From Rhodospirillaceae bacterium (GTDB lineage: Bacteria > Pseudomonadota > Alphaproteobacteria > Rhodospirillales > CALINB01), in NCBI GenBank assembly GCA_038114465.1, contig JAYNQW010000004.1:25528-89527 (forward strand): a stretch of DNA of 64,000 nucleotides. The letters are read 5' to 3'. Every line of letters begins with the position of its first letter. Within the stretch, counting starts at the first letter, position 1. The notes under the pieces were generated by a model, which did not search any database, was not told the DNA's origin, and worked only from the letters and a program-made list of their open reading frames with translations. Positions 32,451-50,602 of this stretch are shown here, in pieces. Both the position numbers and the translations under genes were made by a program.

Positions 32451-32870
32451 TTATTTTTTGTTTTCCGGTTCGAAACCGGGTTCGTACCATGGCCGGTCCA
32501 CATTTTTATCTTCGGCATACCCCATGATACCGAGTTCCGGATCACTCCCGGCATCTTTCGCCATAAAATAAATATTTAAGCCTTCGCCGATCGCAACCAT
32601 TTGGTGCAAAGCATTTGCCGGGATATGAACCATATCGCCCGGGACCATCTCATGATGTTCGCCCTCGACCATCGCTTTGAATTTTCCTTGAAGCACGTAA
32701 TTAAACTGCTCGACCTTAGGATGACGATGCGGCTGCGAACCGGACCCTTGTTTTTTCTCCACAACGCCTGCGGAAATGCGTTCGCCTTCAACCATGCCGA
32801 TTTCAGCCGAACTGATGTGGGCCGCGACCATATCGCGCTTTTCATCAATAATTCTGTGAAAATATTTCAT
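32451..32870 (-). CDS. Cupin paralog 1 (139 aa, monocupin)
   Basis: Cupin motif 1 is GSGSQPHRHPKVEQFNYVLQG and motif 2 is GDMVHIPANALHQ. The N-terminus is MKYFHRIIDE and the C-terminal tail is WYEPGFEPENKK. Confidence 0.85.
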   Translation of the reverse strand: MKYFHRIIDEKRDMVAAHISSAEIGMVEGERISAGVVEKKQGSGSQPHRHPKVEQFNYVLQGKFKAMVEGEHHEMVPGDMVHIPANALHQMVAIGEGLNIYFMAKDAGSDPELGIMGYAEDKNVDRPWYEPGFEPENKK

Positions 32871-32893
32871 GCTTAACTCCTTCGTTTTAAAAA

Positions 32894-33736
32894 TTAATGT
32901 TTTTCCGGATCATGACCTTCCGCATAGCGCGGTGTGTTAAGGCTGGGGTCTTCCGGCACCCCGAAAATACTGCGTCCCTCTTGCTTACCGACATCTTTCG
33001 CGACCACAAATACCCAGTCTTCATCGCCGACAACGATGTTGCCGTGCAGGGCGTTCGGCGGGACATACCATAAATCTCCCGGGCCGATGACTTTCTCTTC
33101 GCCTTCGACGGAAACTTCGCACCGTCCGGAAATAGTATACATGAATTGTTCGACATCCGGATGGCGATGCAGTTGAGCGCCGGTGCCAGCAGCATGGCTC
33201 ATCAACCCGATGGTAATTCGGTCACCATCAATTCGTGTTCCCTTTGTCGTCGTCATTTTAGGATTCAGTAACTCGGCATCGTTCTTATTGAATTTGAAGA
33301 AGTACTTCGAATCTTCACCTTTATCGATACCTTCGAGGACTTCTGACTCCTGACGCGGCGCACTCACGTTTGGGTCCTCCGGCACACCGCTGGTGCCCCG
33401 TTCCGGATCCTTAGCCGCATCTTTTACCATGAAAAAGATGCAGTCTTCTTCGCCGACGGCGATGATGCTGTGCAATGTATTGGCCGGGATATGAACGGCT
33501 TCACCGGGACCGATCACACGCTCCTCACCGTCAACCCAGGGCTGTAATTGGCCCTTTAAGACGAAATTAAATTGCTCAACATTCGGATGGCGGTGCGGCT
33601 GCGAACCGGTGCCGCGCTCTTTATGCACATAACCGACCGTCAAGCGCTCGCCTTTGACCCGCGCACCCTTGGAGGTCGTTATTTTTTTAGAGAACTCCTG
33701 AATGCCCATCGCCGGCAGGTTATGAACAAACGCCAT
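32894..33736 (-). CDS. Cupin paralog 2 (280 aa, bicupin made of two units of the same family)
   Basis: Two complete motif sets are present (GTGSQPHRHPNVEQF...VHIPANTLH and GTGAQLHRHPDVEQF...WYVPPNALH). The second half starts KYFFKFNKND and ends RYAEGHDPEKH. Confidence 0.85.
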   Translation of the reverse strand: MAFVHNLPAMGIQEFSKKITTSKGARVKGERLTVGYVHKERGTGSQPHRHPNVEQFNFVLKGQLQPWVDGEERVIGPGEAVHIPANTLHSIIAVGEEDCIFFMVKDAAKDPERGTSGVPEDPNVSAPRQESEVLEGIDKGEDSKYFFKFNKNDAELLNPKMTTTKGTRIDGDRITIGLMSHAAGTGAQLHRHPDVEQFMYTISGRCEVSVEGEEKVIGPGDLWYVPPNALHGNIVVGDEDWVFVVAKDVGKQEGRSIFGVPEDPSLNTPRYAEGHDPEKH

Positions 33737-33767
33737 GATTTAAGTCTCCTTAAATTCTCAATCGGCC

Positions 33768-34187
33768 TTATTTCTTTTTATCAGGCTCAAACCCGGGTTC
33801 GTACCAGGGCGTTTCCTCTGTACCTTCATCATAAACGCCGTAAATCCAGTTATCCGGATCGCTATGAGCGTCTTTCGCCATAAAATAAATATTCGGGCCG
33901 TCGCCGACAGCAACCATATGATGCAGTGCATTCGGTGGGATATGAACCATGTCACCCGGTTCCATCGTATGATGCTCGCCTTCCACCATCGATTTAAACT
34001 TGCCGGCAATCACGTAATTAAACTGCTCGACTTTGGGGTGACGGTGCGGACGGGAACCCGAGCCCTTTTCCTTTTCGATCAATCCGGCAGTAATTCGGTC
34101 GCCTTTAATGACAGCAGCATGAGCCGTTGTACGTGTGCGTTTTAAATCCGCCCGCTCTTCATCGATGATACGGTGAAAATATTTCAT
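33768..34187 (-). CDS. Cupin paralog 3 (139 aa)
   Basis: It starts MKYFHRIIDE, carries GSGSRPHRHPKVEQF and GDMVHIPPNALHH, and ends WYEPGFEPDKKK. Confidence 0.85.
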   Translation of the reverse strand: MKYFHRIIDEERADLKRTRTTAHAAVIKGDRITAGLIEKEKGSGSRPHRHPKVEQFNYVIAGKFKSMVEGEHHTMEPGDMVHIPPNALHHMVAVGDGPNIYFMAKDAHSDPDNWIYGVYDEGTEETPWYEPGFEPDKKK

Positions 34188-34225
34188 AAATGTTGCCTCC
34201 CATTTTTGCAGCTTGACTTAATTCT

Positions 34226-34645
34226 CTATTTTTTTTCATCCGGATCGAAACCGGGCTCATACCAAGGCTTCGTTGCCGTTTTATCTTCCGCTTCGCCGTA
34301 AATCCATCGTTCCGGATCGCTGATGGTATCTTTGGCCATAAAATAAATATTTTCGCCTTCACCAACAGCGACCATCTGATGAAGTGCGTTCGGCGGTATA
34401 TGGACCATATCACCTTCTTCCATGATGTGGTGTTCACCTTCGACCATGGATTTAAATTTTCCTTTGATGATGAAATTAAACTGCTCAAGTTTTGGATGAC
34501 GGTGCGGCTGCGAGCCGGACCCTTGCTCCTTTTGCACGAGACCAGCAGTAATGCGTTCGCCTTTAATGACGGCGGCATGCGCCGTACTTGTTTTGCTTTT
34601 GATACTTTTTCTGTCTTCGTCGATGATCCGATGGAAATATTTCAT
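34226..34645 (-). CDS. Cupin paralog 4 (139 aa)
   Basis: It starts MKYFHRIIDE, carries GSGSQPHRHPKLEQF and GDMVHIPPNALHQ, and ends WYEPGFDPDEKK. By hand alignment, 103 of 139 residues are identical to paralog 3. Confidence 0.85.
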   Translation of the reverse strand: MKYFHRIIDEDRKSIKSKTSTAHAAVIKGERITAGLVQKEQGSGSQPHRHPKLEQFNFIIKGKFKSMVEGEHHIMEEGDMVHIPPNALHQMVAVGEGENIYFMAKDTISDPERWIYGEAEDKTATKPWYEPGFDPDEKK

Positions 34646-34662
34646 CTCAGTGCTCCCCCTTA

Positions 34663-35088
34663 TTATTTTTTTGCGTCAGGCTCAAAGCCCGGTTCGTAAT
34701 GGGGCGTATTGGCCCCTTCCCGGTCTGGAATGCCCATAATGCCGAGCTTTTTGTCCGACTGCGCGTCTTTCGCCATAAAATATATACAGTCACCATCGCC
34801 GATGGCGACCGTTTGGTGCAATGCATTGGCCGGAATGTATACTAATCCGCCGGGGCCGATTTCGATTTGCTCGTCCTCCACTAAGGCACGCAACCGGCCT
34901 TCCAAAACATAATTGAATTGCTCCACATTGGGATGGCGGTGCGGCTGCGAGCCGGTACCGAGCGCCTTGCGCACGACGGCAACCGTCACCTTTTCACCAG
35001 AAACAGTTGCCGGCTTCGCCGTGGTATGCCGGTCCGGCAAATCATCCGGTTCTTGATTCAAAAGATCATAAAAGTATTTCGATGTCAT
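34663..35088 (-). CDS. Cupin paralog 5 (141 aa)
   Basis: It carries GTGSQPHRHPNVEQF and GGLVYIPANALHQ and ends HYEPGFEPDAKK. Confidence 0.85.
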   Translation of the reverse strand: MTSKYFYDLLNQEPDDLPDRHTTAKPATVSGEKVTVAVVRKALGTGSQPHRHPNVEQFNYVLEGRLRALVEDEQIEIGPGGLVYIPANALHQTVAIGDGDCIYFMAKDAQSDKKLGIMGIPDREGANTPHYEPGFEPDAKK

Positions 35089-35137
35089 ACCAACGGGCCT
35101 CCCTTTATTTATATTTATTAGTATTGCCTAAGCCGTT

Positions 35138-36256
35138 TTATCGGAAGTGTTTCGCTACCTCCATAAACTTGGCAAAAGATTCGGGATCGATGGAATGATC
35201 CTCTTTTTTCTTAACCGAGAATTCAAACGCCGAAAGCGTTTCTTCGATTGTTTCTTGGGCGATACCATTGGTGATGAAAACAATCCGCGTCTGATCATTC
35301 CCACCCGGAAAGGAATCGAGTTCGACCGGCGGATGAAACAGATGCTGCACCGCCTGCACGACAATCGGCGTGCCTTCGACATTCACGATACCTTTCATGC
35401 GCAAAAGGTCGCTTCCTTTAAAGGCTGAAAGCATGTTGAACCATACTTCCAGTCCCTGTGCCATCACCGGCTTGTCATAGGTGATGCAATAGGAACTGAT
35501 GTTCTCGTCGTGATGAGCGTGTTTATGACCGCTGGCATGACTATGGTCATGATCGTGAATATGAGCGTGCTCATCCGTTTTTAACCATTCTTCGATTTCA
35601 TTTTCACCCCAGCGCTCATTATCCGGATTCAGGCCAAACAACGTATCGGGGTCAACTTCACCATGAAGAATCTTATCAATCACTACGCCAGGATTAATGT
35701 GTTCAATGCGCTTGCAGAGAGTCGTGTAAGTTTCGTCATTACTGAGGTCAGTTTTGGTGATGAAAATTCGGTCGGCAACGGCGACTTGCTTGACGGATTC
35801 ATAATGATCATCAAATTGCCCGAGAGCATGCACCGAATCGACAACCGTAATAACGCCATCGACAAAAAACCAATCGCCGAGCCCACTATCGGAGATCACC
35901 GTCATCAACACCGGTACCGGATCGGCCAATCCGGTCGTCTCGACGAGCACGCGATCAAACGGCGGAATTTCGCCTTTGGCCCGGCTTTCAAGCAGGCCAC
36001 TAAGCGTATCAACAAGATCGCCCCGAACCGAACAGCATAAACATCCGCTCGATAGCAGCATGACGTCTTCATTGGGGGTCGTCATCAGCTCATGGTCGAG
36101 TGCAATATCGCCGAATTCGTTAATAATCACGGCGGCATTTTCCATGCCCGGATGCTTCAAAATCCGGTTTAACAGCGTCGTCTTGCCGCTGCCCAAAAAG
36201 CCCGTAATCACGGTCAGCGGGATAAAAGCCTTTTCAGGCCGTTCAAGTTCTTGCAT
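35138..36256 (-). CDS. COG0523/CobW-family G3E GTPase metallochaperone with His-rich insert
   Basis: The Walker A motif is GFLGSGKTTLLN and the CxCC motif is SSGCLCCSVRGD. The His-rich segment DEHAHIHDHDHSHASGHKHAHHD lies at 35507-35575. A CobW C-terminal domain is present. This is the first gene of the same-strand run with the five cupins. Confidence 0.88.
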   Translation of the reverse strand: MQELERPEKAFIPLTVITGFLGSGKTTLLNRILKHPGMENAAVIINEFGDIALDHELMTTPNEDVMLLSSGCLCCSVRGDLVDTLSGLLESRAKGEIPPFDRVLVETTGLADPVPVLMTVISDSGLGDWFFVDGVITVVDSVHALGQFDDHYESVKQVAVADRIFITKTDLSNDETYTTLCKRIEHINPGVVIDKILHGEVDPDTLFGLNPDNERWGENEIEEWLKTDEHAHIHDHDHSHASGHKHAHHDENISSYCITYDKPVMAQGLEVWFNMLSAFKGSDLLRMKGIVNVEGTPIVVQAVQHLFHPPVELDSFPGGNDQTRIVFITNGIAQETIEETLSAFEFSVKKKEDHSIDPESFAKFMEVAKHFR

Positions 36257-36311
36257 TTTCTGTTATCTCTACCCTGGTGAACGAAGATTTGATCAGAATG
36301 GACCACACTCG

Positions 36312-37088
36312 ATGACTATGGTCAACCGCCAGCACATCATCATCCCATACGGCTTAACCCATTGGGATAAAAATGTTTTTTCGAGCACGATGGGCGCCGG
36401 TGGCGATCTTGTTATCAATTGCCGTACCCGTTTTGTTGTGATCGACCCGACAGAGCACTCCCCGTTGCGCCTCAATGGTGGGCAATACGAGTTTCATGAG
36501 CCGCCGAACATGCGCTTACTACCGACGGTCCTGGATCAATTGGCCTTCCTCGAAACCCATTTTTTTGCGCTGTGCGGAACCTGGTCGAAAATGCAGCGGC
36601 TCTTTATTTCGCGTTATTTCGAATTCATTGTAAATCGGGTGGAAGCAGAGCGTTCACACCTCTCAAAATCAATTGAAGCATTCGGCAATCTTTACGAATA
36701 TCAGGATTGGGCTTACTCCGCCTTGCGGCCCCTACCACAGGCCTATGTCTTTGCTCCAAGGGGCGGCAGCGGTGAGGGACTCCCCCAGGCGGATGATTTT
36801 ATCCTTACCGACATTGTTTTTTGGACAGGTAAAAAAGTTTTCGTTCTCGATTTTTCCGATCCCAATGCGACCGATCCGTTCCAAAAGCGTAAATTTGATC
36901 GGATTAAAAATGCCGGTATCAAAATTTTACCTATGACGGCGGATATACTTGAAGACAAATCTTCATCAAACTTCGCCAATAGTTTACCTGAAGTGTTCCA
37001 AAATTTCTGGCAGGGCGAACTCGCGCCATCCCGCCCGTTCGTCGACACCAAGCTCGGCGACCTATCCATCAGCGACATCGGATTTTGA
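36312..37088 (+). CDS. Hypothetical protein (258 aa)
   Basis: The ATG at 36312 (MTMVNRQ...) is used, because the upstream part of the 35976 ORF is antisense to the COG0523 gene. No family was recognised. A terminator follows. Confidence 0.5.
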   Translation: MTMVNRQHIIIPYGLTHWDKNVFSSTMGAGGDLVINCRTRFVVIDPTEHSPLRLNGGQYEFHEPPNMRLLPTVLDQLAFLETHFFALCGTWSKMQRLFISRYFEFIVNRVEAERSHLSKSIEAFGNLYEYQDWAYSALRPLPQAYVFAPRGGSGEGLPQADDFILTDIVFWTGKKVFVLDFSDPNATDPFQKRKFDRIKNAGIKILPMTADILEDKSSSNFANSLPEVFQNFWQGELAPSRPFVDTKLGDLSISDIGF

Positions 37089-37090
37089 AC

Positions 37091-37124
37091 AAAAAAACGG
37101 CGCTCCCGAAAGAGCGCCGCTTTG
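37091..37124. terminator. Bidirectional rho-independent terminator between convergent genes
   Basis: The stem is CGGCGCTC/GAGCGCCG (37098-37105 / 37112-37119) with a 6-nt loop. A7 lies on the left and CTTTG on the right. Confidence 0.7.
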
Positions 37125-37144
37125 AAAATATAGTGGCCGAGTGA

Positions 37145-38257
37145 TCAGGACCCGACCAGTTTCGTCTTCACGAATTTCAAGATCCACTTTTTAACCTCAG
37201 GCTTGATGCCGGCGCCGCGTTTCACGACTTCGGTGGCATCTTTGCCGAACGATTGCGGATTATTGCCGAACCGCTTCTTGGTCAGCTTTTTGAACTTCTT
37301 ATCCTTGTAAACTTTCTTGATCGTCGCTTGATAGGTGTCGAGGACATCTTTGGAGACACCCGGCGGCAACCATAAACCCTTGTTCGACATGGAAATGAGA
37401 TTGATCAACGCTGTATGCGCTTCCCATTGCATGCCCGAGGGTTTTCTACCGTTCAACTTTTCGTAAATTTCACCGACGTGCGGCAGTTCAGGCATAATCG
37501 GGTCGCGACCGATGGTGCCATCCGGCTTAGCAAAACCAAGCGCAGCAAAGGTAATAACGCCTTGCTTTTGCAATTTAGCGTGATTCTGTTTGCATTTGAT
37601 CACGGTTTCCTGGCTGAACTGCAATTCACCCCGGACAACCGCTTTGCGGCGCTTACCTGTCGACAGGCCGAATAACGGCTTCACGTTGGGAATACCGAGC
37701 ATGTCGAAGGCCACGAACGAACCGAGACCGGACGAAATGGCGTTTTTATCGCCCATGAGCAAACGCCCCTTATCGGCGCCCGCTTTGCGTAATGCTTTGA
37801 CGTCAGCCAGAGCATCCGAACCGTTGACGCCGAGTTCCTTACGCGCTTGCAAGCAAATACCGAACGGCGATAGAACAATCGGGTTCCATTTCAACAAGTC
37901 AAATTTGACTTTCTTGCCACCAAAAACATAGCTGGTTTGAACCGAACCGCCGGTTGTCATGATGACAGTACCGTCTCTCGGTGCATTTTTCTGAAACCAG
38001 TTCGAACCCTTGATGCCGCCACCGCCTGGTTTATTGACAGCGAGCACCGCCGGTTTGCCCGGTAGGTATTTGCCGATAAAACTGGCAAAAATTCGACCGT
38101 ACTTATCCGTACCGCCGCCTTCTTTTGTCGGAATAATAACTTGAATCTTTTTACCGGAATAATCGGCAGCGATTCCTGTTGCCGGTGCGGCAACAATACC
38201 GGCACCGAGTACGAGAGCACCGGCCATTGTATAAAGTTTTGAATAATGACTACGCAT
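37145..38257 (-). CDS. Periplasmic solute-binding protein, Bug/TctC-like (tripartite tricarboxylate transporter receptor family)
   Basis: A signal peptide is present (AGALVLGAGIVAAPATGIAA). The family-like pattern is IIPTKEGGGTDKYGRIFA...VNKPGGGGIKGSNW...PRDGTVIM. No TctA or TctB gene is adjacent. Confidence 0.55.
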   Translation of the reverse strand: MRSHYSKLYTMAGALVLGAGIVAAPATGIAADYSGKKIQVIIPTKEGGGTDKYGRIFASFIGKYLPGKPAVLAVNKPGGGGIKGSNWFQKNAPRDGTVIMTTGGSVQTSYVFGGKKVKFDLLKWNPIVLSPFGICLQARKELGVNGSDALADVKALRKAGADKGRLLMGDKNAISSGLGSFVAFDMLGIPNVKPLFGLSTGKRRKAVVRGELQFSQETVIKCKQNHAKLQKQGVITFAALGFAKPDGTIGRDPIMPELPHVGEIYEKLNGRKPSGMQWEAHTALINLISMSNKGLWLPPGVSKDVLDTYQATIKKVYKDKKFKKLTKKRFGNNPQSFGKDATEVVKRGAGIKPEVKKWILKFVKTKLVGS

Positions 38258-38414
38258 AAGCTTCCTCCATGTTGGCTAACCTGTATCCCCATAATTTATT
38301 AGTATTCATTTGGACACTTCTCATATTAAACACCAAAATCGGGCTCTTGGCTTGCACAATCGCAACCCGCAGTTTCCGGCGGAAACCCTAGATATTTAGC
38401 GCTGATGGATGTCC

Positions 38415-39383
38415 TTAATCGATCGTGAACGGCACTTCGAGCCCAATGCCTTGATCCCGGGCCAGTTCGAAAGCCTTCTTCGCCAGCGCCACGTCCTCCA
38501 TGGCAACGCCATGGGAATTATAAACGGTGATGGCATCAGATGACGCCCGCCCCTTTGCGGGATCCGCCATAATGTCACCGAGTTCCAGAACATCCTCCCA
38601 TGACCGACTCCCGTTTTCGACAGCGCGCAACAGGACGGCGGATTCTTTTTGTGCCTGAACCTTATTATCGACCGTGATAACCGAACACGCTTCAAGAGCG
38701 GCATCATCGAGTTCACGGCGTTCGAGCCGGTTCGCCCCCATCGCATTGATATGCGTGCCAGGCTTTAGATGCTCACCGAACAAAACCGGATCCGCTGACG
38801 TGGTTGCCGTCACCAAAACCGAACATGCGTAAAGTTCTTCCGGCGATTTTGCCGCGGATACGGGAATGCCGAGCTTATCCGTCATTTCTTTGCAAAATAT
38901 ATCGAGACGGCCTTGATCCCTGCCGATAGCAAGAATGTTTTTAATCGGCCTGACAGCGGCCACTGCGGCAAGTTGTGTCTTGGCTTGGCGCCCGGTGCCG
39001 AAAATACCGATGGAGTCAGCATCTTCTCGCGCCAGCAGTTTGGTACCGACACCGCTCGCGGCTGCCGTGCGCAACGCACCCAAATGAAAGACTTCAATGA
39101 TGGCATCGACCCGACCGGTCTTACTGTCCACCAATATCAATGTTCGCCCCGACTCGCTCGCAAAAACCATCGAGGACGATACTTTGACGGCAATTTTTCC
39201 CAACGGCGAAACGATTGCCGACGTTAGGCGCAAATAACCGCCGCCGGGAATATCGATCTGCTGACGCGGCGGATTGATAACCTCCCCCGCACCGCTGATC
39301 TTGAACACTTCCGACACCGCGTCGATGGCGTCCTCGATCGTGACGAGGGATTTAATATCGGCTTCAGAAAGAAAGATGGCCAT
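38415..39383 (-). CDS. Ornithine cyclodeaminase / mu-crystallin family protein
   Basis: 322 aa with the Rossmann segment IGIFGTGRQAKTQLAAVAAVRPI and a family-typical N-terminus. Confidence 0.75.
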   Translation of the reverse strand: MAIFLSEADIKSLVTIEDAIDAVSEVFKISGAGEVINPPRQQIDIPGGGYLRLTSAIVSPLGKIAVKVSSSMVFASESGRTLILVDSKTGRVDAIIEVFHLGALRTAAASGVGTKLLAREDADSIGIFGTGRQAKTQLAAVAAVRPIKNILAIGRDQGRLDIFCKEMTDKLGIPVSAAKSPEELYACSVLVTATTSADPVLFGEHLKPGTHINAMGANRLERRELDDAALEACSVITVDNKVQAQKESAVLLRAVENGSRSWEDVLELGDIMADPAKGRASSDAITVYNSHGVAMEDVALAKKAFELARDQGIGLEVPFTID

Positions 39384-39399
39384 AAAGCGCTCTATGTTT

Positions 39400-40164
39400 T
39401 TAAACGATCACCTCACCGCCCATGACATTCACGGATGTACCGGTCACGAATGATGAATCATCGGAAGCAAAATACAAACAAGCATTGGCGATGTCCTCAA
39501 CCTCACCGCGACGGCGAAGCGGGATCATCTCGAGGTGTTCCTTGGAACCACGAGGAACTTTTCGATCCTTGTACCATTCCGGGTTACGCCGTTCGGTTGC
39601 GATCGACCCTGGGTTGATCAAATTCGCCCGAATGCCGTAAGGGCCGCCTTCAGCCGCGACGGCGCGGATCAGCCCCAAAAGGCCATGTTTGCTGGCGGCA
39701 ACAGTACTGGTGCTTGGCTTAGCGGTAATAGCGCCCTTGCCACCCATCGCCATGATCGAGCCGTGTTTGCGTTCCATCATCCCCGGCATGACAGCGCGAA
39801 TAAGATAAAATGCGGCATGAAGATTGACACCCATTCCCCAATGCCATTCCTCATCGGTGATGTCGATGATCGGTGTATGGGGCCGCACGCCGGCGTTGTT
39901 CACCAAAATATCGATGCCGCCGATCGTTTCCGTCGCCTCCTTGACCATTGCGTTGACCTGCTGCGAGTCGGACACATCACCTTGTATGGCAAGGGCCTTG
40001 CGTCCTTTATCGCGGCACGCTGCGGCGACTTCCTCTAATTCATCCGGATTGCTTTTGGAAAGGACGATGATATCGGCCCCCTCATCAGCGAACGTCAATG
40101 CGATTTGCTTGCCGATATTCCGGCTCGCACCCGAAATCAACGCGATTTTACCTTGAAGTTTCAT
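39400..40164 (-). CDS. Short-chain dehydrogenase/reductase
   Basis: It carries ALISGASRNIGK and NNAG, and the catalytic segment SKHGLLGL falls in the YxxxK position region. 254 aa. Confidence 0.8.
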   Translation of the reverse strand: MKLQGKIALISGASRNIGKQIALTFADEGADIIVLSKSNPDELEEVAAACRDKGRKALAIQGDVSDSQQVNAMVKEATETIGGIDILVNNAGVRPHTPIIDITDEEWHWGMGVNLHAAFYLIRAVMPGMMERKHGSIMAMGGKGAITAKPSTSTVAASKHGLLGLIRAVAAEGGPYGIRANLINPGSIATERRNPEWYKDRKVPRGSKEHLEMIPLRRRGEVEDIANACLYFASDDSSFVTGTSVNVMGGEVIV

Positions 40165-40250
40165 GAATCCTCCCGTTAGCGAAATTGTTGTTTTTTTTCA
40201 TTATGCTGCCAAAATTCGATGAATGCCAACAATTACCGCGGAAGAATTAA

Positions 40251-41216: not shown

Positions 41217-41226
41217 AACGAAAAGC

Positions 41227-42432: not shown

Positions 42433-42455
42433 TTGATTCCATTCAAACGCGACGG

Positions 42456-43697
42456 CTAAATGTCGACTTCGCAGATATATAAACCACCGGAGAACCGGTC
42501 CACGCCGTACAACAGACCGGTTTCATCAACGTAAACATCGTTGATCTGTACCGCACCGGCGCGCGAGCCTTCCGGTGCTTCGGGAACGTAATAGGCGATT
42601 TCTTTCGGCTCAAACGGATCGGAGGTGTCGTAGACCCGCATGCCGGCATTGAACATGCCGCAGAACAAAATCGTGTCCGAACGGAATGAATAATCGCCCG
42701 GCCGGTTTTCATGTACGTTATGGGCACCGAAGCGGCCACCCCGGCGGGCGAATTCCTCAACCGGCGGCATCGGCAGCGTGCTGATCGGCACTAAATTCGT
42801 TTCCTCGCGCGCGTCCAAAATCCAAACCCGTTTTGGCCAATCCGCGCCACCGTCCTTGGTACACTCCTCACTGCAAATCAGCAAATCACGGCTGAGAAGC
42901 GGCATGACCGTATGCATGAAACCCGGGAACGGCGGATATGGGTTCCAATGGGTAATCATCTTCGGATTCGCCATGTCGGAAATATCCAACAGGATAACGC
43001 CGCCATCGATGTAAGCGAGGTATGCGCGATCTTTTTTCGCCGGATAGACATTTGTGTTGTGCGTACGAAAACCTGCCTCGAACGGAGGAACCCGTGGTGG
43101 CGGCGGCGCATCGTCGCCTTTGCGCGTACCCGGATACCACCAGCGGCCCACTTCGACCGGCTTGGTTGGATTTCGCACATCAATCGAGCGGTAAAACTGA
43201 CAATCGTTCGGATGGGTCGGCTCAAAATCCGGCGCCCCACCCGAAAAATGGATGTACTCGCCGTCAACAAACCAGCACTGGTGAACGCCCATCGAACCGG
43301 GGCCGGAGCAATCGTAAAACGAAATCGATTTTGGATTTTCTGGATCACTGACATCGAACAATTCAATCCCGGCCGGATCGCCACCCAACCCCGGATCAGA
43401 CACTAAGCCACTCGGCCCCATCGTTTGGTAGCACACGGCCATGATATCGCCGGCAAGGTCCAAGGAATTGGAGCGCACATACATATGTGGCAGCTCGGTT
43501 TGAACCGTTATTTTCGGATTTTTCGGATCAGTAACGTCGACGCCGGTAAAATTCTTTGGTGGGCCTTCATGCGCAAGCCACATGATACGGCGGCCGTCCT
43601 TGGTGACGTGTAATGCCATCCCCTCGCCCAGACCGCCGTAGCCGTCCAGGGTATGCTGTGAAATCAGGCGAATATTATGGGCTTCAGCTTGGCTCAT
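42456..43697 (-). CDS. LVIVD-repeat-like beta-propeller protein, apparently cytoplasmic
   Basis: The ATG at 43697 has a GGAGGT Shine-Dalgarno. The sequence shows repeated beta-strand blades (e.g. DVTDPKNPK, FDVSDPENPK, DISDMANPK, YDTSDPFEPK). No signal peptide is present. Confidence 0.55.
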   Translation of the reverse strand: MSQAEAHNIRLISQHTLDGYGGLGEGMALHVTKDGRRIMWLAHEGPPKNFTGVDVTDPKNPKITVQTELPHMYVRSNSLDLAGDIMAVCYQTMGPSGLVSDPGLGGDPAGIELFDVSDPENPKSISFYDCSGPGSMGVHQCWFVDGEYIHFSGGAPDFEPTHPNDCQFYRSIDVRNPTKPVEVGRWWYPGTRKGDDAPPPPRVPPFEAGFRTHNTNVYPAKKDRAYLAYIDGGVILLDISDMANPKMITHWNPYPPFPGFMHTVMPLLSRDLLICSEECTKDGGADWPKRVWILDAREETNLVPISTLPMPPVEEFARRGGRFGAHNVHENRPGDYSFRSDTILFCGMFNAGMRVYDTSDPFEPKEIAYYVPEAPEGSRAGAVQINDVYVDETGLLYGVDRFSGGLYICEVDI

Positions 43698-43792
43698 CTT
43701 ACCTCCGAAAAATCTTAATTTTGTTAATTGTTGGTCTTGGTATGTTATGAATTGTGTATGTATATGAATACCGTATTGAAGACACAATTACC

Positions 43793-44860
43793 ATGGCTCC
43801 AGTATCGAAAAATTTAAGAACGGATCGCATTCCGGTTTCCGTCATCACCGGCTTTCTCGGCAGCGGCAAAACCACGCTTTTGAACGCATTGCTCAAACAC
43901 CCCGGGATGGCCGACACCGCCGTCATTATTAATGAATTTGGCGAAATCGGCCTCGATCATCTTCTCGTCGAGGAAGCTTTTGAAGACGTCCTCTTGCTAC
44001 AAAGCGGGTGCCTGTGTTGCACGATCCGCGGCGATATAGTCGACACCCTCGACCGTCTGTATGGGCAAATGGACCGGGGGGAAGTCCCCCCCTTCAAACG
44101 CGCGGTCATTGAGACGACCGGCCTCGCCGACCCGGCACCCGTTCTACAGACCCTCATGACAGAAGACCTCATTACGAAGCGGTTTAGACTCGATAGCGTT
44201 ATCACCACGGTCGATGCGGCCAACGGCCTCGGTCAGCTTGATGAACACCCGGAACCGGCCAAACAAGCTGCCGTGGCCGACCGGATTGTTCTGACCAAAA
44301 CGGATCTTGTTTCAGATACGGAAGTTCAACAATTGAAAGAGCGCCTGGCGTCTTTAAATCCCGGTGCGCCGATTTTTGAAGTCATCAACGGGAATATCGA
44401 ACCCGACAAACTGTTCGGTGCCGCCCTATTCGATCTGACGCAAAAAACACCGGACGTGCAACAATGGTTGCGTGAAGAATCCTACAAATCCGAACACGAT
44501 CATCACGACAGTCACCATCACGATGTCAATCGTCACGGCGAAGACATCCGAGCATTTTGTTTAACTTATGACACACCGATCCCGTGGGATGCCTTTAAGG
44601 CATGGCTCGAATCCATCGCATCCGTGCGGGGTGCTGACCTGTTACGCATGAAAGGAATTGTTAACATCGAAGGCGAAACGACACCGATTGTTATCCATGC
44701 CGTGCAGCATGTGTTTCATCCTCCGGCACGCTTACCGAAGTGGCCCGATGATGATCATTCAACGCGTATTGTTTTTATTACCCGCAATATCGCGCAAGAA
44801 CCTCTGGCGAAAACACTGGAAGCATTCGCAACGCAAGTCAAACCGGCGTTTGCGGAATAA
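43793..44860 (+). CDS. COG0523/CobW-family G3E GTPase metallochaperone (second copy)
   Basis: It carries GFLGSGKTTLLN and QSGCLCCTIRGD. The His-rich segment EHDHHDSHHHDVNRH lies at 44492-44536. The ATG at 43793 is preferred. Confidence 0.88.
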   Translation: MAPVSKNLRTDRIPVSVITGFLGSGKTTLLNALLKHPGMADTAVIINEFGEIGLDHLLVEEAFEDVLLLQSGCLCCTIRGDIVDTLDRLYGQMDRGEVPPFKRAVIETTGLADPAPVLQTLMTEDLITKRFRLDSVITTVDAANGLGQLDEHPEPAKQAAVADRIVLTKTDLVSDTEVQQLKERLASLNPGAPIFEVINGNIEPDKLFGAALFDLTQKTPDVQQWLREESYKSEHDHHDSHHHDVNRHGEDIRAFCLTYDTPIPWDAFKAWLESIASVRGADLLRMKGIVNIEGETTPIVIHAVQHVFHPPARLPKWPDDDHSTRIVFITRNIAQEPLAKTLEAFATQVKPAFAE

Positions 44861-44861
44861 A

Positions 44862-46538
44862 TTAAACCACTGCTAAAGGCGCTAAAGCATCAATATCGGT
44901 GACCACATCGATAATCACCGGACGGTTCGCGTTAAACGCCTTGTCCAACGCACCGGGTAATTCGCCCGGTTTTTCGACCCGGATGCCGACGGCGCCCATG
45001 TCTTCGGCAATCTTGGCAAAATTGACGTCCGTGAAGTGCCATAAACGCAAGCCTTCGTCGGTTTGTTCGCCACCGTAGACGCGATCAAACCCGCGTTTAG
45101 ATTGATTGCCGGAACTGTTGTTGTTCACCAGCGTCACAGAATTCACCCCCCAACGGGCCGCCGATTCGATTTCGGCGATGTGATACCAAAAACCGGCATC
45201 GCCGGTGAAGGCGAACACGGGCCGGTCCGGCGCGCCGCATTTTGCACCAATACCGGCCGAAAACGCCCAGCCGAGATGCCCGGCGCTTCGCATATAGCTC
45301 TGGCTTGGCGTACGCAGGTCATACATGCCGCCCATCCACATGCCGCCATGTCCGGTATCGGCAACAACAATGGCATCATCCGGCAAGTGCTTGCTCAGTT
45401 CATGGCAAATCCGCTCCGGCCGCATGGGGGTCGCATCGGATTCTAATAAGTCCTTATATTTGTCATACCATTCGCCGACGACGTCTTTGGCACGTTTTGC
45501 CCAATTTTCCCGGCCGCTTGCAGACTCAGCGTTTGTTTGCTCGAGCATCCGCGCAATAACCGTTTTGGCGTCCCCCTGCACGGCCGCCTGGAACGGATAA
45601 TTACGGCCAAGCTCTTCCGGCTCAATGTCGATTTGAATGACCGGCCGACCGATCTCCGGCACCTGCCAAAAATTAGTCACCATACCGCCGGTCGATGAGC
45701 CGATGTAGCAAACGAGATCGGCTTCGTTCACGATCCGGTTGGCACTTTCGCGTGAATACGTTCCGACCACGCCAACGGATAGAGGATGCGTTGCCGGAAT
45801 TGAATCTTTGCCATTTAGCGATGTTGCGATGGGAATGTTCAGCCGTTCGGCTAACGATACCAGTTCAGCCTGCGCCCCTGATGCCCGCACACCACCACCG
45901 GCAACAATGACCGGTTTTTTTGATGCTTCGAGTAAAGACAGCGCCGCCCGGACCTGGTCCGGTGCTGGTTCGGGACGAAATGGAGTCACACGCTTAAACA
46001 TATCCTCGCACAACACTTCCATATCGGCTTCTTCGGCATCGACTTGGCCTTCATTCCCGCGAAATTGCAAATGAACCGGTCCGGGACAACCCGTAACAGC
46101 CGTGCGAAACGCTTGGCGTACCATATCGGGAAACCGTTCGACGGCATCGACGGTCGCATTGAATTTCGTTACAGGCTCAAACGCCGGCACGTCATCGACT
46201 TCCTGGTAAACACCACGGAACTTTGTCGACGGATCACGCCCACCAGTCATGGCAATGACAGGCGAGCGGGCCAACCACGCATCGCGCAAACCGGCGGCCA
46301 AATTTAAGGCACCGATGACCTGCGCCATGCAGATGCCGGGCTTTCCCGTAGCGCGAGCGTAGCCATCGGCCATGTACGCTGCCGATTTTTCCGAATGCAC
46401 ATGCAGACGTTTAATATCCGTGCGCTTTTCAAGCTCAACCATGGTCGTGCGCAGCACCGCCGGCACCATGAAGATGTGGCTAACATCATAGCCTTTAAGC
46501 ATATCGGCCATAACTTGCGCACCGGTCATTTTCGCCAT
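44862..46538 (-). CDS. Thiamine-pyrophosphate-dependent enzyme (acetolactate synthase large-subunit-like)
   Basis: 558 aa with an N-terminal Pyr domain (GYARATGKPGICM...GALNL) and the C-terminal TPP motif GDAGFWYHIAEIESAARWGVNSVTLVNNN. Confidence 0.8.
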   Translation of the reverse strand: MAKMTGAQVMADMLKGYDVSHIFMVPAVLRTTMVELEKRTDIKRLHVHSEKSAAYMADGYARATGKPGICMAQVIGALNLAAGLRDAWLARSPVIAMTGGRDPSTKFRGVYQEVDDVPAFEPVTKFNATVDAVERFPDMVRQAFRTAVTGCPGPVHLQFRGNEGQVDAEEADMEVLCEDMFKRVTPFRPEPAPDQVRAALSLLEASKKPVIVAGGGVRASGAQAELVSLAERLNIPIATSLNGKDSIPATHPLSVGVVGTYSRESANRIVNEADLVCYIGSSTGGMVTNFWQVPEIGRPVIQIDIEPEELGRNYPFQAAVQGDAKTVIARMLEQTNAESASGRENWAKRAKDVVGEWYDKYKDLLESDATPMRPERICHELSKHLPDDAIVVADTGHGGMWMGGMYDLRTPSQSYMRSAGHLGWAFSAGIGAKCGAPDRPVFAFTGDAGFWYHIAEIESAARWGVNSVTLVNNNSSGNQSKRGFDRVYGGEQTDEGLRLWHFTDVNFAKIAEDMGAVGIRVEKPGELPGALDKAFNANRPVIIDVVTDIDALAPLAVV

Positions 46539-46569
46539 GGGAAGACTCCGTCTTTGTTTAAGTTGCTAT

Positions 46570-47574
46570 TTATTTAATGGCGAGCGGATTGACCGGCGAA
46601 CCGACCGCGCCGGTGATCGGCAAGGCCGGCGCGACAAACATAAACTCGTATCGTCCGTCCTTGGCGCAATCCTTGGCGATTTCCGTGAAGTCGAAAATTT
46701 CGCCGACGGTCAAGCCCATGATCGGGATCGAAATCCAATGCCACGGCTGGTTGTATTCTTTCGACCGGTTCGGCCGTACTTCGGCCCCCCAAGTATCGGT
46801 CGCGACACCGGCGACTTCCTTTTCATGCAGCCATTGCAGTGTATCAAAACCGAGGCCCGGCGCATCGCCGCCGGGGTAGCCATCCCAGTTGCCCTTGTGC
46901 AGGCAATGCTCGAGCTGGCCGGTCCTCACCATGACAAAATCACCACGCTTGACCTCGACGTCATGATGCTTAGCCGTATCTTCCAAATGTTTTGCCGTGA
47001 CCTCAAATGCATCCGGCAGCCATTTCTTGCCGAGCATCTTCGGCACGTCTAATAAGATGCCCCGGCCGACGATTTTGTCGCGGGTCTTTTCAATGCCGCA
47101 TTTTTGCGCGCCGTTACTGGTCACCTCACGGACATCGAAACCGTTGTACATGTAGTCTTCGTAAAAGATGTGCCCTAATCCGTCCCATTGCGTGCCGCAT
47201 TGGGTCGGCAGGATAACGATATCATCAGAAGCCCGTATCTTGCGGTGATCCAGCACGCCGGAATAGGCATCCGTTCCCGTGCGCAACATGACATGGATCG
47301 GATTAAAACGGTTCATCGGCGGATACTTCGTTTTGCCACCTTGTGGTCCCGCTTGATCAAAATTGAGCGCCAGCGAAAAGACCTTGCCCCGTTGCACCAA
47401 TTGCGCGGCCTCAACGATGTCTTTCGGCTTGATGTAATTCAGCGTGCCAATTTCGTCTTTCTTGCCCCACTTACCCCAGTTTTTAAGCTTTCTCGCCGCG
47501 GCCTTCATCATGGGCTTGGTCACCAGCCCTTTGAAGCTCACTTTTTTCGCTTTTGATTTTGCTTTCTTCGCCAT
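46570..47574 (-). CDS. Cyclase-family (kynurenine-formamidase-like) metal hydrolase with K-rich N-terminal extension
   Basis: The N-terminus is MAKKAKSKAKKVSFKG...KLKNWGKWGKKDEIGTLN. The cyclase-family core contains GTQWDGLGH. Confidence 0.65.
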   Translation of the reverse strand: MAKKAKSKAKKVSFKGLVTKPMMKAAARKLKNWGKWGKKDEIGTLNYIKPKDIVEAAQLVQRGKVFSLALNFDQAGPQGGKTKYPPMNRFNPIHVMLRTGTDAYSGVLDHRKIRASDDIVILPTQCGTQWDGLGHIFYEDYMYNGFDVREVTSNGAQKCGIEKTRDKIVGRGILLDVPKMLGKKWLPDAFEVTAKHLEDTAKHHDVEVKRGDFVMVRTGQLEHCLHKGNWDGYPGGDAPGLGFDTLQWLHEKEVAGVATDTWGAEVRPNRSKEYNQPWHWISIPIMGLTVGEIFDFTEIAKDCAKDGRYEFMFVAPALPITGAVGSPVNPLAIK

Positions 47575-47589
47575 GATGACTCCTCTGAG

Positions 47590-48000
47590 TTATTTCTTTT
47601 CGTCCGGATCGAATCCCGGCTCATAATGGGGTTTATCGTAAGTACCGTCTTGGGTTTCCGTTTTCAGTTCCCGTGATGCATCTTTAATGCCGATAAATTC
47701 AACATCTTCATCCGACACCGTAATGAACTGATGATAGACGCCGGCGGGGACATAAACGAGTTCACCCGGACCAACGACGCGTTCGTCTTCACCCTCAATC
47801 ACGACTTTTAATTGTCCTTTGAGGATGTAATTAAACTGCTCAATCGAATGCTTGTGCATGCGAGAGCCTGTCCCCTTGGCTTTTGTTGCCAAGCCGAAGC
47901 TGATGCGCTCGCCAATCAATTTCGCGCCGTGAGAAGACGACACGCCCGGCGCATAGTCGAACTTTTCGGCTTCCGAAAAATTCGGAAAAATGTGTTTCAT
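47590..48000 (-). CDS. Cupin paralog 6 (136 aa)
   Basis: It carries GTGSRMHKHSIEQFNYILKG and GELVYVPAGVYHQ and ends HYEPGFDPDEKK. Confidence 0.85.
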   Translation of the reverse strand: MKHIFPNFSEAEKFDYAPGVSSSHGAKLIGERISFGLATKAKGTGSRMHKHSIEQFNYILKGQLKVVIEGEDERVVGPGELVYVPAGVYHQFITVSDEDVEFIGIKDASRELKTETQDGTYDKPHYEPGFDPDEKK

Positions 48001-48055
48001 TGTTTAGACCTCCCTGGTTTCTATGTTTTAGCTTGTCTTGGTCCTTACAGCAATA

Positions 48056-48086
48056 AGCCCCGGCGAAGACAATGCCGGGGCTTTTG
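48056..48086. terminator. Hairpin/terminator between the amidohydrolase and cupin 6 genes
   Basis: The 9-bp stem is AGCCCCGGC/GCCGGGGCT (48056-48064 / 48074-48082). The T-run (TTTTGATT) is on the plus strand, and only a weak U-tract lies on the coding (minus) strand. Confidence 0.45.
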
Positions 48087-48108
48087 ATTAAATCGTTCGA
48101 TTTTTGGC

Positions 48109-49461
48109 TTAGAGGTCGTCCAGCTTCTTCCAGGGCGGCGGTGCCGGATGGACCACATAACGCGGTGTATCGGAGAAACGGTCGATAAAAACACCGCCGG
48201 CCTTCATCACCATTTTGATGTTGTCTTTTTTCTGCAGAACGGTGATATCGCGATCCGGGCTGCCGTCGATGGCGAGAATATCGGCGATTTTGCCTTTCTC
48301 GATCGTGCCGAGATCTTTGTCGAGCCGGACCGCTTCGGCGGCGTTTTTCGTCGCCGTCACGATGGCTTCCATCGGCGTCATCCCGAGATCGACATAAAGC
48401 GCCAACTCGTTTGCATTTTCGCCGAATTCCGGATCGAGACCAGTATCCGTACCCATGGCCAGCTTCACGCCTGACTGATGGAATTTTTTGAAGGATTCAT
48501 AAGTGTAAGGCTGAATCTTTTTCATTTTCTTCAAAATGAATTCCGGCGTACCGCATTTCCGGCGCACCTCAATGGCATGATCAGTCCGGTGCAGAAGCGT
48601 CGGAATCACAGGAATTTGCGCATCTTCGATCATCTTGATGGTTTCGTCATCGGTAAAGACGATGTGCTCAATCGTATCAACCCCGGCGCGCACACACATG
48701 CGATGCGATTCGGTCGTAAAACAGTGCACAGCGCATTGCGCGTGGAAAGCATGACACTCATCAACAATGGCATCGAGCTCTTCCTGGGTCATATTGCGCA
48801 CGTCGGGCTCTTCCTTATCGGTACCGCCGCCGCCGGATGCGGACGTTTTGATAAAGTCTGCACCATGACGAAGCTGCTCACGAGTGGCCCGACGCAAATC
48901 CCACGGCCCATCGGCAACCAAATCATCGGCGACCCGGACATGGGCACGCGGCAGCGTAAGATCCAAGTGAGAATTCGTAATGACGGCGCGGCCGCAAACG
49001 ATCAAACGAGGTCCGGCTAAAACACCGTTATCAATGGCATCTTTCAAGGCAACCATTTCAACCGTGTTTTGCCCAGTCGGCAACATGCGGCCTTGATCGC
49101 GCAACGTCGTGAAACCCATTTCAAAACACAACTGTGCATGAAACAGCGTGTAATAACTTTGCAGTCCGCGGGAAACTTCGAAAATGGAGACCCGATAGTT
49201 ATTCCAAGTGATCGGGTTAAAAGCTGCAATATGCACATGCAGATCGAACATGCCCGGCATTAGCGTGTATTTGGAGGCATCGATGACTTCGGCGCCGGCT
49301 GGGATCTTAACTTTACCCTTAACACCGACTTCCTTGATGCGGTCGTCTTTAATGACGATGATCGGATTATTAATAATCTCTCCGCCGTTGCCATCAACGA
49401 GCCGCTTGCCCTTGATGACTTTGACATTGCCTGATTTCTTTTTTGCTGCCGATTTTGCCAC
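48109..49461 (-). CDS. Metal-dependent amidohydrolase-superfamily protein with K-rich N-terminus
   Basis: The HxH motif (PGMFDLHVHIA) and distal ligand regions (AVHC, GTDTG) are present. The GTG at 49461 is preceded by GAGGGAGA, giving an N-terminus MAKSAAKKKSGNVKVIKGKR. The ORF-track start at 49524 has no Shine-Dalgarno. Confidence 0.8.
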   Translation of the reverse strand: MAKSAAKKKSGNVKVIKGKRLVDGNGGEIINNPIIVIKDDRIKEVGVKGKVKIPAGAEVIDASKYTLMPGMFDLHVHIAAFNPITWNNYRVSIFEVSRGLQSYYTLFHAQLCFEMGFTTLRDQGRMLPTGQNTVEMVALKDAIDNGVLAGPRLIVCGRAVITNSHLDLTLPRAHVRVADDLVADGPWDLRRATREQLRHGADFIKTSASGGGGTDKEEPDVRNMTQEELDAIVDECHAFHAQCAVHCFTTESHRMCVRAGVDTIEHIVFTDDETIKMIEDAQIPVIPTLLHRTDHAIEVRRKCGTPEFILKKMKKIQPYTYESFKKFHQSGVKLAMGTDTGLDPEFGENANELALYVDLGMTPMEAIVTATKNAAEAVRLDKDLGTIEKGKIADILAIDGSPDRDITVLQKKDNIKMVMKAGGVFIDRFSDTPRYVVHPAPPPWKKLDDL

Positions 49462-49726
49462 TGGATTTATCTCCCTCTCGCCCCCGCAATGATTAAATTG
49501 CAGATTAAAATATTTTGTTTGCATTAGTTTAAGAGCAACTAAGACGTCTGATTATCATAGACGGCAATTCAGCCCTGTCAATTGCCTGACCGAACCGTAA
49601 TATCCTTTAAACATTAGAATTTTTCTATTGCGACATATTCGCAAAACACTTGCTTCACGATGCCTCTAAATTTATGTTTGTGAGCAACCATTCACGGCAC
49701 AATTAACCACCCAGGAACCGAACATC

Positions 49727-50602
49727 ATGGCCAAATCTTTGAGGAAAAAGAAGAAACCTGCGCGACGCAAAAAGCCCGCGAAACGCAAAGCGGTCAAAAA
49801 GAAAACCGTATCGAAGCGCCGTCCAACAAAACGCAAAGCCACGAAGCGCAAGGCAACTAAACGTAAAACGGTGAAGCGCAAAGCGACGAAGCGCAAGGCG
49901 ACGAAGCGTAAGGCGACTCGCAAAAAGCCGGCTAAAAAGAAAGCAACAAAAAAAAGTAAATCCTCAAAGAAAACCGCACGGAAAAAACCCGCGAAGCGGA
50001 AGCCGGCCAAGAAAAAATCAACGAGCAAAAAACCGGTGAAGAAAAAAACACCGGCTAAGCGTAAGGCCACGAAGAAGAAAAAAGCTACGGCTTCGAAGAA
50101 AAAGCCGAAGGTTTTCGTCTACAACATGTACGACCTTAAAAAGCCGAAAGGGCCGGCGAGCGCCGAGGTTAACCCGCACCGCAAGCTGTCGGGCAAATCG
50201 ACAACGGAAGCCTGTAATATTAAAGGCGCGCAAATGCAGGTGGGGATCGCCCACAAACGCCAGGGCACCGGCTCCAAGCTCCATACGCACCCGAACGAGC
50301 AATACAACTTCGTGCTCAAGGGAACGCTGGTTGTGGATATCGACGGTCGAATTCAACGATGCCCCGCCGGCAGTGTCGTTCATATACCAGCAGGCACGGT
50401 ACACAGCACCTGCGCATCCGAAGAGGGCGACGCCATCTTCTACGTCTGTAAGGATAACCGTCACGGTATGGCGGGGCCACCGATCGACGGCAAGGAAGAT
50501 GGTGCGCGCTATCTACCTGGCTTCGAGCCGACGGAAGAGCAACGCCAACAAGACGCGGATAAAACTCGCAAAGTTACAGACGACAAAGTCAAAAGACTTT
50601 AG
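49727..50602 (+). CDS. Histone-H1-like lysine-repeat domain fused to cupin paralog 7
   Basis: The N-terminal ~135 aa are almost entirely K/R/A/T/P repeats (KRKAT x6, PAKKK...). The C-terminal cupin carries GTGSKLHTHPNEQYNFVLKG, GSVVHIPAGTVH and RYLPGFEPTEE. Confidence 0.8.
   Translation: MAKSLRKKKKPARRKKPAKRKAVKKKTVSKRRPTKRKATKRKATKRKTVKRKATKRKATKRKATRKKPAKKKATKKSKSSKKTARKKPAKRKPAKKKSTSKKPVKKKTPAKRKATKKKKATASKKKPKVFVYNMYDLKKPKGPASAEVNPHRKLSGKSTTEACNIKGAQMQVGIAHKRQGTGSKLHTHPNEQYNFVLKGTLVVDIDGRIQRCPAGSVVHIPAGTVHSTCASEEGDAIFYVCKDNRHGMAGPPIDGKEDGARYLPGFEPTEEQRQQDADKTRKVTDDKVKRL
49733..50130 (+). repeat. In-frame low-complexity coding repeat (15-nt ACNAARCGNAARGCN units at 49826-49918 inside a longer AAG/AAA-rich tract)
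   Basis: Direct reading shows six consecutive units: acaaaacgcaaagcc / acgaagcgcaaggca / actaaacgtaaaacg / gtgaagcgcaaagcg / acgaagcgcaaggcg / acgaagcgtaaggcg. Confidence 0.85.

Follow-up and report, generated by a model that had tools for sequence, protein, structure and literature searches.

A conserved, YEPGF[ED]P-ending extension in a clade of quercetinase-like monocupins: probably a structural strap of the barrel rather than a targeting tag

Among the described cupins, KdgF (5FQ0), TM1459 and the N-terminal domain of YxaG (1Y3T) possess the same barrel and the same His-x-His-x3,4-Glu...His motif as a group of cupins encoded in a 64-kb stretch of DNA from a Rhodospirillaceae bacterium (a metagenome-assembled genome of the Rhodospirillales; assembly GCA_038114465.1, contig JAYNQW010000004.1, positions 25,528 to 89,527), which is referred to here as the window. 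YxaG additionally shares with these proteins a G-x-P-x-D...P-x-Y scaffold that follows the barrel. However, the solved Cupin_2 structures lack the YEPGFEP ending (“tail”) which recurs at the C-termini of the window's cupins, and the tailed family adds approximately 30 residues to a minimal monocupin. Family-specific terminal extensions are common among cupins. In an earlier reading of the window (the original prediction), the tail had been taken for the signature of a docking or targeting peptide. Here, it is argued that the tail is, with a probability of roughly 0.6, a structural element specific to the family, strapping or capping the barrel, and not a detachable address label.

The tail was traced in the list of open reading frames (ORFs) of the window and by a six-frame regular-expression scan. 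It terminates five monocupins, all encoded on the minus strand: C1 (139 amino acids (aa), 32451..32870; ending in ...RPWYEPGFEPENKK, with the tail PWYEPGFEPENKK encoded at 32454-32492), C2 (139 aa, 33768..34187; ...TPWYEPGFEPDKKK, tail PWYEPGFEPDKKK at 33771-33809), C3 (139 aa, 34226..34645; ...KPWYEPGFDPDEKK, tail PWYEPGFDPDEKK at 34229-34267), C4 (141 aa, 34663..35088; ...TPHYEPGFEPDAKK, tail PHYEPGFEPDAKK at 34666-34704), and C6 (136 aa, 47590..48000; ...KPHYEPGFDPDEKK, tail PHYEPGFDPDEKK at 47593-47631), the latter being situated directly downstream of an amidohydrolase gene and 12.5 kb away from the tandem array formed by the others. Their consensus ending is P-[WH]-Y-E-P-G-F-[ED]-P-x-x-K-K. 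Two further proteins carry variants of the motif. A bicupin of 280 aa, in which two cupins of the tailed family are fused (32894..33736, minus strand), ends in ...PRYAEGHDPEKH with the degraded form RYAEGHDPEKH (motif at 32906-32929) and has lost the internal copy after its domain 1 (APRQESEVLEG); its orthologs retain RYAEGF/YDPD. The cupin C7 (291 aa, 49727..50602, plus strand) begins with a Lys-rich extension of ~130 aa, which is followed by the cupin, the sequence RYLPGFEPTEE (...ARYLPGFEPTEE; motif at 50507-50530), and 20 more residues. The five near-identical endings, the remote position of C6 and both variant endings had been pointed out in the original prediction, and every sequence and position was confirmed.

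Throughout the window, PGF[ED]P is confined to the C-termini of these cupins; hence, the shared tail is not a product of chance. Among the paralogs, the tail codons vary freely at synonymous sites—TAC/TAT, GAA/GAG, CCC/CCG/CCT, GGT/GGG/GGC/GGA and TTC/TTT, affecting nearly every codon—which argues for selection on the peptide and led to the rejection of recent gene conversion as the source of the tail identity. The barrels have diverged to 32-68% identity, with the tail remaining invariant. Judged from the sequences, the shared tail thus reflects common descent and purifying selection. All seven tail-motif proteins, together with a further bicupin of type 2 (see below), match Cupin_2 (PF07883) at E=1e-11 to 6e-32 (C1, E=4.7e-14), in each case above the gathering score, and the metal motif is intact in all seven. 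The two-motif metal site (G-x5-H-x-H-x3,4-E-x6-G and P-x-G-x2-H) was found with H48, H50, E54 and H89 invariant in the paralog alignment and in 97 relatives. Neither Pfam nor NCBIfam contains a clade-specific model; only the generic cupin models match.

Conservation of the segment preceding the tail was assessed in an alignment of 97 non-identical tailed relatives. The last barrel strand ends in ...K105-D106 and leads into the family signature K-D-x-S-x-G-I-x-G-x-P-x-D-G-x3-G-P-x-Y-E-P-G-F-E-P, in which positions G114, I115, G117, P119, D121, G122, G126 and P127 are conserved. This is the segment that had been described as a poorly conserved linker, a description which is appropriate for the looser window paralogs but not for the family, where a conserved Gly/Pro scaffold is evident. 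The segment looks unconserved in the window because the Rhodospirillales paralogs present there carry a clade-specific insert of four residues, SDPE (positions 109-112), and looser versions of the scaffold. The G-x-P-x-D...P-x-Y scaffold of the family profile aligns, with a posterior of ~0.8-0.9, to VIGNPYDHAEHPPY, the post-barrel segment of the YxaG N-terminal domain at residues ~129-146 of 1Y3T; thus, the scaffold is old within the quercetinase-like lineage.

Within the tail, the conservation of Y, E, F and E is comparable to that of the second-shell residues surrounding the His-His-Glu-His metal site. This would be compatible with an active-site lid, where the extension covers the barrel opening and substrate binding or catalysis involves Tyr129, Glu130 or Phe133, the more so as C-terminal segments gating the pocket are common among cupins. 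However, the tail is identical on barrels that have diverged and presumably act on different substrates, and tail-less paralogs persist; a lid is, hence, given little credence.

Structural information derives from AlphaFold2 (AF2) single-chain models of C1 and of the bicupin, which were read via the predicted local distance difference test (pLDDT) and DSSP strings. The model of C1 has a mean pLDDT of 94, with values of 93-95 over residues 111-130 and only three residues below 70, which are taken to be the terminal N-K-K; for the YEPGFEP tail, a pLDDT of ~90 is estimated from the block mean. β-Bridges were assigned at residues 118-119 and 128-129 and, given that they are present in a single-chain model, their partners are intrachain. 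After residue 109, DSSP assigns no helix, and the sequence is rich in Pro and Gly. The bicupin model (pLDDT 88; predicted template modelling score (pTM) 0.87) shows two barrels packed as a pseudo-dimer, with equivalent bridges following domain 1 (118-119 and 128-129) and domain 2 (260-261 and 271), while the N-terminal segment (residues 4-6 and 146-148) is strand-forming in the bicupin model only. The emergence of this N-terminal strand in the bicupin, with the C-terminal bridges unchanged, suggests that the N-terminus contacts the other domain or subunit in trans, and that the C-terminal extension is anchored in cis. The disordered linker that would be expected of a short linear motif was not observed, the region being ordered in two independent models.

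Comparison with known structures confirmed the β-barrel fold, C1 being matched by Foldseek with a probability of 1.0 to KdgF, TM1459 and QueD. Its alignment to minimal cupins of the KdgF/TM1459 type spans only ~106-110 residues, which implies that the last ~30 residues are appended to the barrel and do not constitute its last strand. The bicupin matched OxdC, MncA and YxaG at E=5e-17 with template modelling (TM) scores of 0.63-0.65. Searches of the PDB with C1 and with the family profile returned barrel matches only and, thus, no solved structure with the tail; likewise, none of the PDB neighbours found by Foldseek for both models (generic cupins and bicupins) covered the extension at a low root-mean-square deviation.

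These models also bear on the possibility of an inter-subunit clasp, according to which the tail crosses to the neighbouring subunit and locks a homo- or heterodimer, comparable to the inter-domain connector of bicupins. Monocupins, as is generally the case in the cupin superfamily, commonly dimerise; moreover, the post-barrel segment of YxaG to which the scaffold aligns leads into the inter-domain connector, two such cupins are naturally fused in the window bicupin, which resembles OxdC, MncA and YxaG, and a tail-less paralog shares an operon with tailed ones, which would fit hetero-oligomers. On the other hand, the bridges at 118-119 and 128-129 are already formed in the single-chain model and are unchanged in the bicupin, where it is the N-terminal strand that changes. 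In addition, domain 1 of the bicupin is devoid of the motif, with the confidence in domain pairing (pTM 0.87) still intact. A clasp is, on balance, unlikely, albeit not far-fetched.

The tail is widespread in the family, being present in many phyla and in relatives with as little as ~40% identity. A word-indexed protein search retrieved 36 relatives, most of which, down to ~43% identity, end in ...Y-E-P-G-F/Y-E-P..., and a hidden Markov model scan of 1.84 billion cluster representatives yielded 37 clusters at E<=1e-30 and 413 at E<=1e-10, with many of the best matches containing the motif. From species-representative genomes, 78 loci were collected (54 tailed and 24 tail-less), covering Rhodospirillales, Pelagibacteraceae (SAR11, including the isolate HIMB1695), Hyphomicrobiaceae, Afifella pfennigii, Burkholderiales, Desulfobacteraceae/Syntrophus, Rokubacteria, Tectomicrobia and Nitrospinota. 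The tail itself is present in Rhodospirillales, SAR11, Hyphomicrobiaceae, Burkholderiales, Desulfobacteraceae, Rokubacteria and Afifella, that is, in Alpha-, Beta- and Deltaproteobacteria as well as Rokubacteria. Its position is not restricted to the end of the chain: in bicupins P0043, P0054, P0055, P0081, P0101 and P0137—and, by sequence reading, P0044—PR-x-LPGF is kept after domain 1 with the chain continuing. This mid-chain occurrence, together with the 20 residues beyond the motif in C7, indicates that a free C-terminus is not needed.

As for portability, the back-translated YEPGFEP was scanned in a metagenome collection and 120 listed matches were classified, which represents a sample and not a census. 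Fifteen of these belong to the present cupin family, all of them located 2-16 residues before the stop, and the remainder comprises tRNA T-arm look-alikes, short chance ORFs and unrelated families with a deep internal heptad. A second family using YEPGFEP as a C-terminal tag was not found among the 120 matches listed. One unrelated family of ~189 aa was encountered in which the identical heptad occurs in another setting, within a conserved internal ...SFGEEYEPGFEPVPTSASELPELH (loci L099, L103, L108, L109, L115, L122, L142, L148, L163, L169, L180 and L196).

Against this background, the analogy to cargo tags can be evaluated, according to which the tail would direct the cupins as cargo into an encapsulin or a bacterial microcompartment. 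The likeness is a superficial one of layout, i.e., a C-terminal motif that is short and conserved and is preceded by a stretch of lower conservation. However, the motif is Pro/Gly/acidic in composition and without helix according to DSSP, unlike the amphipathic α-helix of ~18 residues typical of microcompartment encapsulation peptides; the preceding “linker” is ordered (pLDDT 93-95); and the motif does not serve as a C-terminal tag in other protein families among the 120 metagenome matches listed. Furthermore, shell families were found neither in the window ORFs that were scanned (these do not include every gene of the window), nor in the Pfam tables of loci L001-L010, nor among the recurrent gene families assessed across 81 related loci. 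Thus, the original prediction was right in recognising no shell or encapsulin gene, as far as the scanned window ORFs are concerned, whereas the tag analogy itself has to be abandoned, its probability being negligible. The broader reading as a docking or targeting peptide also finds little support, considering that the region is ordered, found family-wide, not portable and not dependent on a free end. Separately, a role of the tail as substrate of the peptidase-like amidohydrolase, akin to the trimming of ribosomally synthesised and post-translationally modified peptides (RiPPs), was considered and rejected; it has adjacency in its favour only, while the predicted order of the tail and its mid-chain copies in bicupins speak against it.

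Taken together, the data show family-wide conservation, an ordered prediction, selection at the protein level, independence from a free C-terminus and, among the matches listed, restriction to the cupin family. Under the favoured interpretation, YEPGF[ED]P would be the terminal segment of an extension of ~30 residues that marks one large clade of quercetinase-like (COG1917/Cupin_2) monocupins. This extension would form a Gly/Pro-scaffolded, non-helical strap beyond the minimal barrel, which folds back on its own chain, where it probably serves as a cap or brace of the barrel and possibly extends to the dimer interface; purifying selection would hold the strap constant because it is part of the fold. 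The cis packing is what we infer from the DSSP bridges in the monomer models, and the capping or bracing is a putative role. A structural option, an oligomerisation clasp, had already been offered in the original prediction, and a structural role as clasp or cap fits the evidence. The same text had also named two findings that would speak against docking, and both were largely borne out: in the monomer model, the tail is ordered and forms β-bridges, as would be expected of a cap within the same chain, and it is general in the cupin subfamily irrespective of genomic context, occurring in many lineages and in seven loci with long flanks and neither of the two characteristic neighbours described below.

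Several points weigh against a structural strap. Packing in cis is read from DSSP strings and pLDDT values, and AlphaFold may assign high scores to segments of homo-oligomers that pack in trans. Furthermore, natural paralogs exist that keep the scaffold yet lack YEPGF: chains stopping after “...GPR” or “APR” have retained the scaffold and lost the heptad (P0022, P0029 and P0031, as well as the gene in third position of the COG0523-cupin operon of loci L012 and L014), which makes the heptad a separable terminal module that is not indispensable for folding. Finally, the tailed clade is strongly syntenic with a COG0523 GTPase and an amidohydrolase, and a purely structural role leaves this synteny unexplained. 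As to the tail-less cupin of L012 and L014, this is a protein of 132 aa ending in ...SAPRVVAE (10435-10836 in L014 and 10453-10848 in L012), which corresponds to the N-terminal half of the window bicupin; this suggests that the bicupin arose by fusion of a tail-less cupin to a tailed one.

In the window, the tandem array is part of an operon with the order COG0523a-C4-C3-C2-bicupin-C1-SDR and intergenic gaps of 16-49 nt, and the same operon is found on more than 20 public contigs. Its first gene encodes COG0523 GTPase “a” (372 aa, 35138..36256, minus strand), in which cobW and CobW_C domains, a GCLCC motif and a His-rich linker are present; the nearest NCBIfam models—YjiA-like GTPase, CobW and ZigA—all remain below their cut-offs. 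The COG0523 GTPase “b” gene (43793..44860, or from an alternative GTG start at 43754; plus strand) is divergent from a gene for an LVIVD β-propeller (42456-43697, minus strand), a pairing that recurs in loci L012, L014, L034-L040, L047, L050 and L063. The gene adjoining C6 codes for a COG1228-type amidohydrolase (471 aa, 48109..49524, minus strand), for which the nearest NCBIfam model is XaaProDiPepCaul with 329 bits versus a cut-off of 500; this score below the cut-off of the Caulobacter-type Xaa-Pro dipeptidase suggests a distinct, related COG1228-type subfamily.

For the 78 loci, genes within 10 kb of the cupin were counted as neighbours. The amidohydrolase is the commonest conserved neighbour of tailed cupins, with orthologs (E 1e-144 to 1e-188) beside the cupin at 32/54 tailed loci, compared to an amidohydrolase at 1/24 tail-less ones. 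A COG0523 gene is present in 26/54 tailed loci (from SAR11, Rhodospirillales, Hyphomicrobiaceae and Burkholderiales) versus 0/24 tail-less ones. When the count was restricted to cupins flanked on either side by 8 kb or more, both neighbours were found for 16 of the 25 tailed cupins and the amidohydrolase only for two, and seven, among them that of Afifella pfennigii DSM 17143, had neither, whereas both neighbours were present for one of 17 tail-less cupins. Collapsed to lineages of 60% identity, the tail-less loci are essentially one clade, characterised by a different, helical C-terminus and different neighbours, so the correlation between tail and synteny amounts to a single phylogenetic contrast; the co-occurrence of tail and COG0523 was, thus, dropped as evidence for docking. 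Within the largest lineage, the tail is present in 46/46 members, with COG0523 nearby in 25 and the amidohydrolase in 31. The adjacency to COG0523 mentioned in the original prediction is, therefore, real and widely conserved, but the tail is more constant than the synteny.

This neighbourhood forms the basis for viewing the tail as a partner handle, by which the COG0523 GTPase (via its C-terminal domain) or the amidohydrolase would recognise the paralogous cupins for metal delivery or complex formation. A COG0523 gene heads the window operon of five tailed cupin genes; the trio of COG0523, tailed cupin and amidohydrolase recurs in SAR11, Rhodospirillales, Hyphomicrobiaceae and Burkholderiales, as well as in the long-flank counts given above; and the tail has stayed invariant across the diverged barrels. 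The C-terminal domain of COG0523 proteins is a candidate protein-interaction domain, the rules of client recognition not being known (PMC11672702). Degenerate tails (YEPGY, YESDY, FDQDY) are found in Deltaproteobacteria loci which show no COG0523 within the contigs at hand. All this is offset by the correlation being essentially one phylogenetic contrast, by intact tails without COG0523 within 10 kb in the seven long-flank loci and in the Burkholderiales loci L018 and L044, by the tail-less cupin inside the COG0523 operon of L012/L014, and by the predicted order of the tail, which is not that of a free linear motif. Besides, the COG0523 protein may equally serve the amidohydrolase, considering that amidohydrolases of the COG1228 type are typically Zn enzymes. 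A handle of this kind is, thus, distinctly unlikely, and a strap on the cupin's own barrel remains the preferred interpretation.

Besides the amidohydrolase and one or two COG0523 genes, recurrent companions of the tailed cupins are the LVIVD propeller, a 258-aa protein and a type-2 bicupin of ~270 aa, in addition to genes resembling, by sequence and length, TTT-type (TctC/TctA-like) transporter, SDR and HIBADH-like dehydrogenase genes. Carriers of the module range from SAR11 to Burkholderiales (loci L027-L040, L047, L050, L051, L057, L058, L063, L068, L072, L083 and L085). The window's copy of the type-2 bicupin (277 aa, 61592..62425, minus strand) is an eighth cupin gene outside the range covered by the original prediction; it has two Cupin_2 stretches and no tail, matches the bicupin of L038 in phmmer at E=2e-106, and is an ortholog of the ~270-aa bicupin accompanying both the tailed and the tail-less clade. 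The gene for the conserved 258-aa protein (36312-37088, plus strand) is divergent from COG0523a and matches neither Pfam nor NCBIfam; homologs are found near COG0523 in L012, L014, L034, L035, L041, L047 and L050, being adjacent and divergent in L012, L014 and L041. In the interval between the two genes (36257-36311), no clear Zur-type palindrome was detected by eye. Another gene codes for a 370-aa protein with a predicted signal peptide (37145-38257, minus strand), also without a Pfam or NCBIfam match, which occupies the slot of the TctC-type binding protein in related loci and is possibly a divergent solute-binding protein. No specific NCBIfam name was obtained for the cupins, a neighbouring cyclase, the 258-aa protein or the 370-aa periplasmic protein.

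A feature distinct from the tail is the presence of basic stretches. The N-terminus of C7 (49727-50137) comprises ~130 residues of Lys/Arg/Ala/Pro-rich, histone-H1-like low complexity, and Lys-rich starts are also found in the cyclase (47455-47574) and the amidohydrolase (~49420-49524). Similar basic C-terminal tails occur in relatives from Betaproteobacteria, Nitrospinota and Tectomicrobia, located after YEPGFEP in the tailed ones. By appearance, a role as localisation or polyanion-binding signal would suit these Lys-rich stretches better than the YEPGF tail.

On its own, the tail is an ordinary family signature, useful as a diagnostic motif for a cupin clade that is labelled only “cupin domain-containing protein” in profile libraries. 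Of greater interest than the tail is the module of cupin, amidohydrolase and COG0523, which is uncharacterised in the literature searched; no description of the tailed cupin family or of its module was found there, and neither the review PMC11672702 nor that literature contains a cupin client of COG0523. Given that most clients of bacterial COG0523 chaperones have yet to be identified (PMC11672702), the module offers testable candidate clients. Should the YEPGFEP strap serve as a recognition handle for the COG0523 GTPase or the amidohydrolase, which is a long shot, a bacterial COG0523 metallochaperone would for the first time have a defined motif for recognising its clients, and the module concerned is conserved in SAR11 as well as in other aquatic bacteria of high abundance.

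With regard to known systems, the module resembles established COG0523-client pairs—ZNG1-METAP1, ZagA-FolE and the nitrile hydratase activator—in that a GTPase combining a CxCC motif with a His-rich linker shares an operon with genes for metal-dependent enzymes and that synteny is retained across orders (PMC11672702). In contrast to these pairs, what links the GTPase to the cupins here is gene neighbourhood, and the amidohydrolase is an equally good candidate client. With the encapsulation and targeting peptides of encapsulins and microcompartments, the tail has in common that a short conserved terminal motif is present on enzymes; however, those tags are located behind disordered linkers, on unrelated cargo families and near shell genes, whereas the cupin tail is ordered and found in one family. 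They are also Gly/Leu-rich or amphipathic-helical, while the cupin tail is rich in Pro, Gly and acidic residues. The extension also sits where the connector leaves domain 1 in OxdC, MncA and YxaG, proteins which the model of the window bicupin resembles. Unlike in these bicupin connectors, the monocupin chain stops after the motif, and a second domain makes no difference to the bridges.

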